Part shown: in pieces, positions 21,406 through 21,816 of the stretch
Numbering within the stretch: position 1 is the first letter of the stretch
How the letters are laid out: every line of letters starts with the position of its first letter
IMG/VR virus record: IMGVR_UViG_3300031555_004294
Coordinates: 224,001 to 288,000 of that record
Source of the DNA: a virus
Lineage: Duplodnaviria > Caudoviricetes
Reading direction: 5' to 3' (one strand)
Length of the DNA: 64,000 bases
Program-made: the position numbers and the translations under genes
The notes under the pieces: generated by a model
Databases searched by the model: none
Told to the model about the DNA's origin: nothing
What the model saw: the letters and a program-made list of their open reading frames with translations, nothing else

Positions 21406-21816
21406 AATTAATCAGAGAAGTTGATGGTATCAGAGTAAAATAATGAATCATGAAATATAAAATAGTATCAAAATTGTATAATGAATCAATAATCTAGACA
21501 GTATCAATAATAGAAATGAATCATTCGAACAAATAGTATCACGTTGGTGTAATGAATCAAATGAACTTATAGTATCAACATACAGAAATGAATCAGAACA
21601 AGAAATAGTATCAGGAATACACAATGAATCAATGATATTAATGTAGTATCAACCCATCTAAATGAATCATTGTTGTCTACAGTATCATATATAAAAAATG
21701 AATCAACATGGTCAAATGGTATCACTTTCAATTAATGAATCAAATAAAGAAATAGTATCAAATACTTATAATGAATCACGATCACCAATACAATAGTGTC
21801 AGAGCGTTTCAATGAA
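21406..21816 (+). repeat. Dual-repeat guide-RNA array 1 (TIGR-like), 11 units of about 36 nt
   Basis: AATGAATCA-N9-AYAGTATCA-N9 repeated, for example 21551 AATGAATCA aatgaactt ATAGTATCA acatacaga AATGAATCA gaacaagaa ATAGTATCA ggaatacac. Spacers are all different, 8-14 nt. Confidence 0.92.

Follow-up and report, generated by a model that had tools for sequence, protein, structure and literature searches.

Why would a phage carry one and the same guide unit in two of its arrays, and what might that guide be aimed at? The question arises in a fecal jumbo phage, in a stretch of 64,000 nucleotides, here called the window (bases 224001–288000 of a 299,070-bp virus record, 31% G+C). The runs listed as holding this stretch are animal feces metagenomes of 2018, with no RNA run among them. 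Published work on TIGR-Tas systems leaves open what their natural targets are and how paired spacers are gained or changed (Faure 2025, PMC12045711; Xu 2026, 10.64898/2026.09.09.750476). The shared unit bears on both questions, offering a concrete 21-bp candidate target and evidence on how arrays evolve, and it is in these two things that the interest of the locus lies.

A TIGR-TasA system with three arrays

The exact word AATGAATCA occurs 33 times against 2.6 copies expected, with a spacing of 35–38, and all copies but two fall into three clusters at 21406–21819 (+), 28204–28690 (+) and 38497–38996 (−). In each cluster this edge repeat alternates with a loop repeat, A[TC]AGTATCA, at steps of about 18 nt. 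No further TIGR arrays were found in the rest of the 299,070-bp record.

Array 1 (21406–21819, +) has 11 units with a period of about 36 and begins 7 nt past the stop codon of a Zn-ribbon open reading frame (21186–21398, +), which forms its upstream junction. Its first element is AATTAATCA and its last is a truncated edge repeat, AATGAAAAA, followed by an A/T-rich hairpin and a T-run; together these make up a probable terminator (21811–21850, +). The tasA-adjacent array of G001, the nearest relative retrieved, closes with a like layout (AATGAAAAAAA, hairpin, T-run). A consensus terminator scan did not call the array 1 hairpin, whose stem is GC-poor, and in the array flanks a scan for sigma-70 promoters scored no higher than shuffled sequences. 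The 3′ end of array 1 is adjoined by a gene on the opposite strand (21895–23736, −) for a 613-aa protein with Zn-finger repeats and an endonuclease-like C-terminus. This protein has at least five repeats of a Zn-finger-like module (...VGDEYTVLGxYxN...HNxCG...) and weak C-terminal matches to CapR and MTES_1575; its gene lies beside the array terminator in both the phage and G001 and may give rise to breaks close to the arrays.

Array 2 (28204–28690, +; about 13 units) has the same repeats as arrays 1 and 3 and shares no spacer with either; its positional orthologue is the second array of G001. Array 3 (38497–38996, −; about 13 units) lies directly downstream of tasA (39064–40113, −) and is followed, after about 65 nt and a hairpin, by a gene for an AAA+ (MoxR-like) ATPase (37179–38447, −), its downstream junction. 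The tasA product is 349 aa long when read from Met36 of the longest open reading frame, which is also the form on record. In a phmmer comparison with PDB sequences it matched TaTasR (9mty, E = 3.8e-12) and TasH (E = 3.6e-7), with alignments that span only the Nop parts of both. Its AlphaFold model (pLDDT 83.6) is disordered over residues 1–44 and helical for the remainder, with long helices at 45–139, and the best Foldseek matches of the model were TasH and TasR (E = 6e-8 to 6e-7) and then the IS621 bridge-RNA recombinase. No Pfam domain was found in TasA, and no RuvC or HNH domain N-terminal to its Nop domain.

The edge repeats vary in a paired manner. Whenever edge position 7 changes T>C (AATGAACCA), position 2 of the following edge changes A>G (AGTGAATCA), as seen in four arrays belonging to three phages; two edges of array 2 have A>G at position 6, each coupled to T>C at position 3 of the edge after it; and AATGAGTCA is followed by AACGAATCA or AAC... 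in the next edge. The instances lie at 28442–28486 and 28516–28560 of the window, at L001 11153–11197 and 17399–17443 (G001), and at L030 2845–2889. These compensatory changes fit base pairs between the 5′ and 3′ ends of each processed tigRNA. They also mark positionally orthologous units whose spacers differ completely.

The locus therefore has what defines a TIGR-Tas system: a Tas-type Nop-domain protein (by phmmer and Foldseek), two alternating repeats of 8–12 nt with spacers of about 9 nt in a unit of about 36 nt, and edge-repeat halves whose covariation fits base pairing (four arrays, three phages). It also shows the absence of RuvC and HNH domains that sets the TasA subtype apart. It does not have the single repeat of 25–36 nt, spacers of similar size and cas genes of CRISPR-Cas, given that its repeats are 9 nt and its spacers 9–11 nt long, and no Cas domains were found among the 10 array-flanking open reading frames scanned. 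All three arrays are dual-repeat TIGR arrays with a single nuclease-free TasA (Faure 2025, PMC12045711), and the phage system is a member of the already known TIGR-TasA family.

One guide unit in two arrays

One tigRNA unit occurs twice, at 21697–21742 (+) in array 1 and at 38778–38732 (−) in array 3 (46 and 47 nt). The array 1 copy consists of an edge repeat (AATGAATCA, 21697–21705), spacer A (ACATGGTCAA, 21706–21715), a loop (ATGGTATCA, 21716–21724), spacer B (CTTTCAATT, 21725–21733) and the next edge (21734–21742). The array 3 copy, read on the minus strand, has its edge at 38778–38770, spacer A (ACATGGTCAAA) at 38769–38759, the loop (ATAGCATCA) at 38758–38750, spacer B (CTTTCAATT) at 38749–38741 and the closing edge at 38740–38732. 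Between the copies, the loop repeat has two substitutions, and spacer A ends in one additional A in array 3. The unit is the ninth of 11 in array 1 and the sixth of 13 in array 3, and the units flanking either copy are unrelated.

We compared 65 complete units from the three arrays, two G001 arrays and the array of a further relative, L030, giving 2080 pairs. The shared unit was the sole pair identical at 18 of 18 spacer positions; the runner-up reached 13/18, and the best pairs in 300 letter-shuffles reached 11–15/18. No single spacer was common at 9/9 anywhere else among the units compared, and neither a second pair above chance nor collinearity of arrays 1 and 3 was seen. The first-pass annotation had reported this complete spacer pair in arrays 1 and 3, and its coordinates and letters, the differing loops and the unrelated neighbours were all correct. 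It had also taken spacer A, loop and spacer B to be the functional unit, which agrees with the published tigRNA architecture (PMC12045711) and with the conservation of both spacers as a pair; by the published target rule the two spacers would, moreover, lie side by side on one candidate target. In the viral_contigs collection, a search for spacer A, 8–13 nt and spacer B gave eight matches, none of them in an array.

The last unit of array 3 again contains the CTTTCAA heptamer of spacer B (aaaCTTTCAA; 38741–38731 and 38515–38506), and the unit after aaaCTTTCAA has aTTTCAAtg, 7/9 identical to spacer B, which may be chance in AT-rich DNA. No target relation was found for these spacer B-like heptamers of array 3.

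Arrays of 9-nt repeats are hard for short-read assembly, and one copy could in principle have been made by reads mis-joined within them. A Logan contig of run X1 spans array 1 (20800–22153) and a second spans array 3 (38280–40261), each with 0 differences; both come from a different assembler and bridge the arrays into unique sequence on either side. Array 3 is identical in the JGI assemblies of three other samples (L002, L003 and L004), and array 1 is matched at 100% identity over 6269 bp in an independent JGI contig (L165). With both copies spanned by independent contigs and no sign of misassembly, we regard an artefact as having a practically negligible probability. No strand change between the two copies appeared among the best-supported contig joints, a view in which contigs are blind to rare isomers.

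At 38712, within array 3, one contig in all four fecal runs matches rightwards and continues leftwards into unrelated non-array sequence (...GAAGCTGCGGAAATAGAA); this break may reflect either a short match by chance or a junction present in a variant. In run X3, one low-depth contig (depth 2.4) joins 31875 back to 21347 through 33 other letters, and this joint, just upstream of array 1, is a hint that the gene order there differs in some relative or variant.

Gene order and spacer turnover among relatives

G001 is an IMG/VR phage of 319,626 bp whose Tas protein is 63% identical to that of the phage and whose aligned genome segments have a mean nucleotide identity of about 73%. The GenBank phages collection held no near relative and, by protein, only a distant Microcystis phage. 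Contigs with an identical Tas protein have identical arrays, without variation.

In G001 the Zn-ribbon gene is followed by a hairpin and then directly by the AAA+ ATPase gene, without an array between them. Its tasA is followed by seven units, an 81-nt non-repeat stretch and about three more units (3–4 distal units), and the array ends in the truncated edge repeat, the terminator and a homologue of the 613-aa gene; in a G001-like contig, L031, this homologue (73% identical) likewise adjoins the 3′ end of the tasA-adjacent array. The phage instead has the order Zn-ribbon gene, array 1, a terminator of the G001 kind and the 613-aa gene, and separately tasA, array 3, a hairpin and the ATPase gene. 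The stretch before its ATPase gene, with the hairpin and the ribosome-binding region, is homologous to the G001 intergenic region between the Zn-ribbon and ATPase genes. Arrays 1 and 3 lie at the two junctions of a rearrangement, with array 3 corresponding to the tasA-proximal end and array 1 to the terminator-proximal end of the single tasA-adjacent array of G001. Two inversions, or an excision and re-insertion, interconvert the two gene orders. L030, with a Tas 72% identical, has a third arrangement; because the gene downstream of its array is unrelated to the 613-aa gene, it does not polarise the change, and the ancestral order may be either.

The interruption in the G001 array (about 81 nt; L001 11265–11340, identical in L031 2469–2549) contains AAAGGAGG and lies between the seven proximal and the 3–4 distal units, roughly where arrays 1 and 3 of the phage part. 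Compared with the array 1 leader and the array 3 trailer, it showed no significant similarity to either.

The first-pass annotation had suggested comparing unit order across related phages, and had held that whole-array duplication followed by random decay would count against its reading. The phage, L030 and G001 have no spacers in common in any pairing, and the relatives show neither collinear units nor any collinear remnant of such a duplication. Array 2 and its positional orthologue in G001 do have rare repeat variants in common, AATGAAC[CT]A ... ATAGTAACA ... AGTGAATCA, from their seventh and eighth edge repeats onwards, with unrelated spacers between them. Repeats and array positions thus persist between relatives over a span in which the spacers are wholly replaced. 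Against such full turnover, a pair that is identical in two arrays should be either young or conserved.

The loops bear on this choice. ATGGTATCA occurs twice in array 1 and ATAGCATCA twice in array 3, and neither is found elsewhere among the 65 units. A difference at two of nine loop positions speaks against a very recent copy; old descent plus selection on the spacers, homogenisation of loops within each array, or independent origin would each be compatible with it. Two substitutions in nine loop sites and none in 18 spacer sites have P ~ 0.1 under neutrality (our own arithmetic), so these few sites could point only weakly to selection on the shared spacers.

metG as a candidate target and the origin of the two copies

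To read a target from a spacer pair, we used the published tigRNA1 of TaTasR (AGCCA-UGCAAGCCC-UGAAACCCA-UUGCCUUAG-UGCG), whose target strand is ...TGCAAGCCC CTAAGGCAA... (PMC12045711 supplement). Comparison of these oligonucleotides indicates that the target, written on one strand, runs from spacer A without a break into the reverse complement of spacer B; the same order also yields the reported 3′ overhangs of TaTasR. For the shared unit the scan pattern was ACATGGTCA, 0–3 free bases and AATTGAAAG.

In a collection of 185,579 species with one genome each (596 Gb), this pattern gave 102 exact matches, where about 70 would be expected by chance (our own arithmetic). Seventeen of the 102 have the spacing AAA and the same flanks, and all 17 fall on the same codons of metG. 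The 21-mer concerned, ACATGGTCAAAAAATTGAAAG, encodes EHGQKIE(R), codons 50–58 of bacterial metG, and the 17 matches translate to ...TG[TSA]DEHGQKIE[RS]..., an invariant motif (TGTDEHGQKI) just past the HIGH region of MetRS. Three of the matched open reading frames were checked and are MetRS (Pfam PF09334, E = 1e-111 to 1e-115); the site starts at codon 50–54 of about 650 in five of six frames checked and at codon 87 in the sixth, which is read from a start further upstream. By record title the 17 genomes are mostly Clostridia and other Bacillota, with a few Halanaerobiales, Acholeplasmataceae, a cyanobacterium and an archaeon. The exact 21-mer also had 16 matches in a metagenome collection, 13 of them in metG.

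Among 151 evenly drawn Clostridia genomes, with at most two mismatches allowed, the pattern matched 33 genomes and its reversed control 11 (chi-square ~13, P ~ 3e-4, our own arithmetic). About 13 of these matches have the form [AG]CATGGNCA[AG]AA[AG]ATT... expected of the metG site, as judged by form alone. Another real unit of array 1, put through the same test, gave 20 genomes against 19 for its reversed control, in scattered unrelated sequences. The exact 21-mer itself is rare, being present in one of 201 sampled Clostridia genomes.

Other searches gave no comparable clump. The shared pair as a target had seven matches in the viral collection, in scattered contexts and none in metG, and three other guides had one, three and four scattered matches in viral_contigs. 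Two other guides had no exact match in 14 genomes that carry the metG 21-mer, and at 30 metG loci, with at most one mismatch, the shared unit alone matched among the guides of the phage and its relatives. Guides of the phage and G001 were also compared with both genomes, in both spacer orders and with gaps of 0–4; the best matches had 1–2 mismatches and were no better than reversed controls, and self-targeting was rejected. No MetRS gene was found in the phage itself.

The relation of the shared pair to metG, as seen in species genomes, is probably not chance, because a single pattern in a pre-specified orientation hits, in frame and in the codons favoured by low-GC organisms, a site whose amino acids do not vary across bacteria. 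By our own rough estimate, a cross-class clump of this kind would arise for a random pair with a probability of 1e-4 to 1e-3. From the matches of this one guide we infer, on statistical grounds, that metG is its candidate target. The first-pass annotation had named this guide the best candidate for an important target and had proposed searching Clostridia genomes, phages and the rest of the phage genome. As a lead this has held up: it is the only guide for which a non-random match was found, and that match is to the essential gene metG; the clump lies in species genomes, the matches in viruses are scattered and those in the phage's own genome are no better than reversed controls.

How the guide would sit on this site needs some care. 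With 9-nt spacers, the two metG half-sites lie 3 bp apart, and in TaTasR gaps above 2 bp abolished cleavage, a limit that the authors ascribe to the cost of melting base pairs without gaining RNA–DNA pairs in return. Spacer A of the shared unit is longer, however, than the 9 nt of most units, measuring 10 nt in the array 1 copy and 11 nt in that of array 3, and its additional A's match the A-run between the target halves. With the first A of the loop included, pairing can extend over 12 + 9 nt for the array 3 copy, the whole 21-mer without a gap, and over 11 + 9 nt with a 1-nt gap for the array 1 copy. The predicted fit of guide to site depends on these added A's pairing. Because spacer A reads like the coding strand, its predicted partner is the template strand, and that of spacer B the coding strand.

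In the mechanism that we propose, both arrays would be transcribed and cut into tigRNAs, with the two copies giving the same guide apart from one A and the loop. A TasA dimer with this tigRNA would open the metG site, one spacer pairing with each strand, and the bound TasA would halt the transcription of host metG at a point about 150 nt past its start. Since TasA lacks a nuclease, it would not be expected to cut, and binding or repression would be the expected outcome; other TasA proteins are RNA-guided repressors in reporter assays (Xu 2026, bioRxiv 10.64898/2026.09.09.750476). What the phage would gain is unclear, given that it encodes no MetRS; shutting the host down late in infection, or halting growth in a carrier state, are speculations. 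We put forward tentatively, at somewhat less than even confidence, that the duplicated unit is a natural guide against host metG, that the nuclease-free TasA serves the phage as an RNA-guided silencer of this essential synthetase gene, and that selection is why this guide alone was kept in two arrays. If so, aiming at the codons of an invariant motif would let the guide work across hosts and make escape hard.

On balance we think it somewhat more probable than not that these elements belong together, as a unit that was duplicated, whose copies were split by rearrangement and whose guide was kept by selection, with metG as its candidate target and silencing by TasA as its effect. Both copies would derive from one unit, duplicated by recombination between short repeats, probably inside an ancestral array; a rearrangement would later have separated them, and the spacer pair would have stayed intact because it was a useful guide, while the loops drifted or were homogenised within each array. 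The first-pass annotation had suggested that single units move between arrays, or that the target was acquired twice or kept under selection. Retention by selection is part of our reading, and the idea of movement has to be recast: since arrays 1 and 3 are the two ends of what in G001 is one array, the apparent move may be a duplication within a single ancestral array that was later split, which would be the simplest history, and the loops speak against a very recent copy. The split alone does not explain the sharing, because the shared unit lies seven units from the end of array 3 and eight from the start of array 1, away from the broken ends at which a staggered split would place it. The same observation weighs against a neutral copy, which would have arisen when 9-nt repeats recombined ectopically or underwent gene conversion, or incidentally during the rearrangement, with no selection and a coincidental match to metG. 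Such a copy would suit the position of arrays 1 and 3 exactly at rearrangement junctions, the partly similar units in one G001 array (13/18), which hint at unit duplication, and a total of 102 exact matches near the ~70 expected in 596 Gb. Yet a copied tract would carry its loop, and here the loop differs at 2/9 positions while the spacers are intact at 18/18; chance matches should scatter rather than fall 17 times on one orthologous metG site across several classes; and the 3:1 excess over the reversed control was absent for another real unit. We consider a neutral copy unlikely, if the most serious of the alternatives.

Independent acquisition, in which each array separately gained a guide to one site and took its loop from the local array, would explain why the loops differ and why each variant is confined to its own array. 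Spacers A of 10 and 11 nt look like two captures with slightly different boundaries, and a strongly favoured target, such as the invariant metG site, could be selected twice. But slippage commonly changes an A-run by 1 nt, an identical start of spacer A together with an identical 9-nt spacer B is unlikely from two random captures out of a megabase genome, and no acquisition machinery or event has been reported in the TIGR literature; we rate this course as improbable. Duplication of a whole array, after which the other spacers diverged beyond recognition and the shared pair survived by chance or selection, seems to us very improbable. It draws on the loop difference, which suggests that the copies are not young, and on the orthologous arrays of the phage and G001, which keep marker repeats (seventh and eighth edge) but no recognisable spacers, so that spacers evidently turn over in place while repeats stay. 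Against it, there is no second pair above chance and no collinearity, the unit is ninth of 11 in one array and sixth of 13 in the other, and the single tasA-adjacent array of G001 against two half-arrays in the phage points to a split. Chance survival at 18/18 amid total decay is very unlikely as well, and this alternative would still need selection on the guide.

Among described systems, FpTIGR of Flavonifractor plautii (PMC12045711) is similar in its alternating short repeats, ~9-nt spacers and 36-nt period, in the truncated edge repeat and terminator at the array end, in its nuclease-free Nop-domain protein and in its phage location. The present phage differs in having three arrays for one tasA, two of them 10 and 17 kb off and array 1 on the opposite strand, and in carrying one guide twice, with a spacer A of 10–11 nt and a candidate natural target in metG. 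TaTasR and SpTasH (PDB 9mty, 9w04) share the Nop and coiled-coil fold, and the shared spacer pair on the metG 21-mer would fit their tandem-spacer rule, whereas the phage TasA is without RuvC or HNH and its repeats read UCA...UG/AG rather than CCA...UG. The proposed action, an RNA-guided, nuclease-free DNA binder that blocks transcription of a chosen gene, resembles that of type IV and type V-M CRISPR and of dCas9 silencing, and type IV and type V-M systems are likewise borne by mobile elements (phage, plasmid). Unlike these silencers, the TasA family is unrelated, recognition is split over 18–21 bp on both strands without a PAM, there are no known acquisition genes in TIGR, and what TasA is proposed to silence is a housekeeping gene of the host, not a rival element. 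Duplicated CRISPR spacers also put one guide twice into a repeat–spacer locus, most simply through recombination between repeats; here, by contrast, a spacer pair with its internal repeat was duplicated, and the internal repeat has diverged while the spacers have not.

The TIGR-Tas papers name no natural target for any TIGR array, and a full-text search found nothing further. If the metG reading is true, it would give a TIGR array its first assigned natural target, and it would imply that TIGR spacers longer than 9 nt can bridge the half-site junction. If it is wrong, an ordinary duplicated guide in a known kind of system remains. For array evolution, the locus suggests that whole units of spacer, loop and spacer can be duplicated, that genome rearrangement can split and relocate arrays that remain intact, and that related phages retain repeat scaffolds while their spacers are fully renewed.

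Elsewhere along these genomes, the AAA+ ATPase gene of G001 (151452–152900; L013/L014) is split after about 65 codons by about 1.2 kb that holds a 247-aa open reading frame and structured-looking sequence, probably an intron or homing element; the ATPase gene of the window (37179–38447) is uninterrupted. At 26686–27339 of the window, the summed contig depth exceeds that of the adjoining bins 5–10 times in each of the four fecal runs, and short joints and loose ends are numerous at 26885–27214. The open reading frame at 26869–27390 seems to be variable, or common to many other organisms or elements in the fecal samples.
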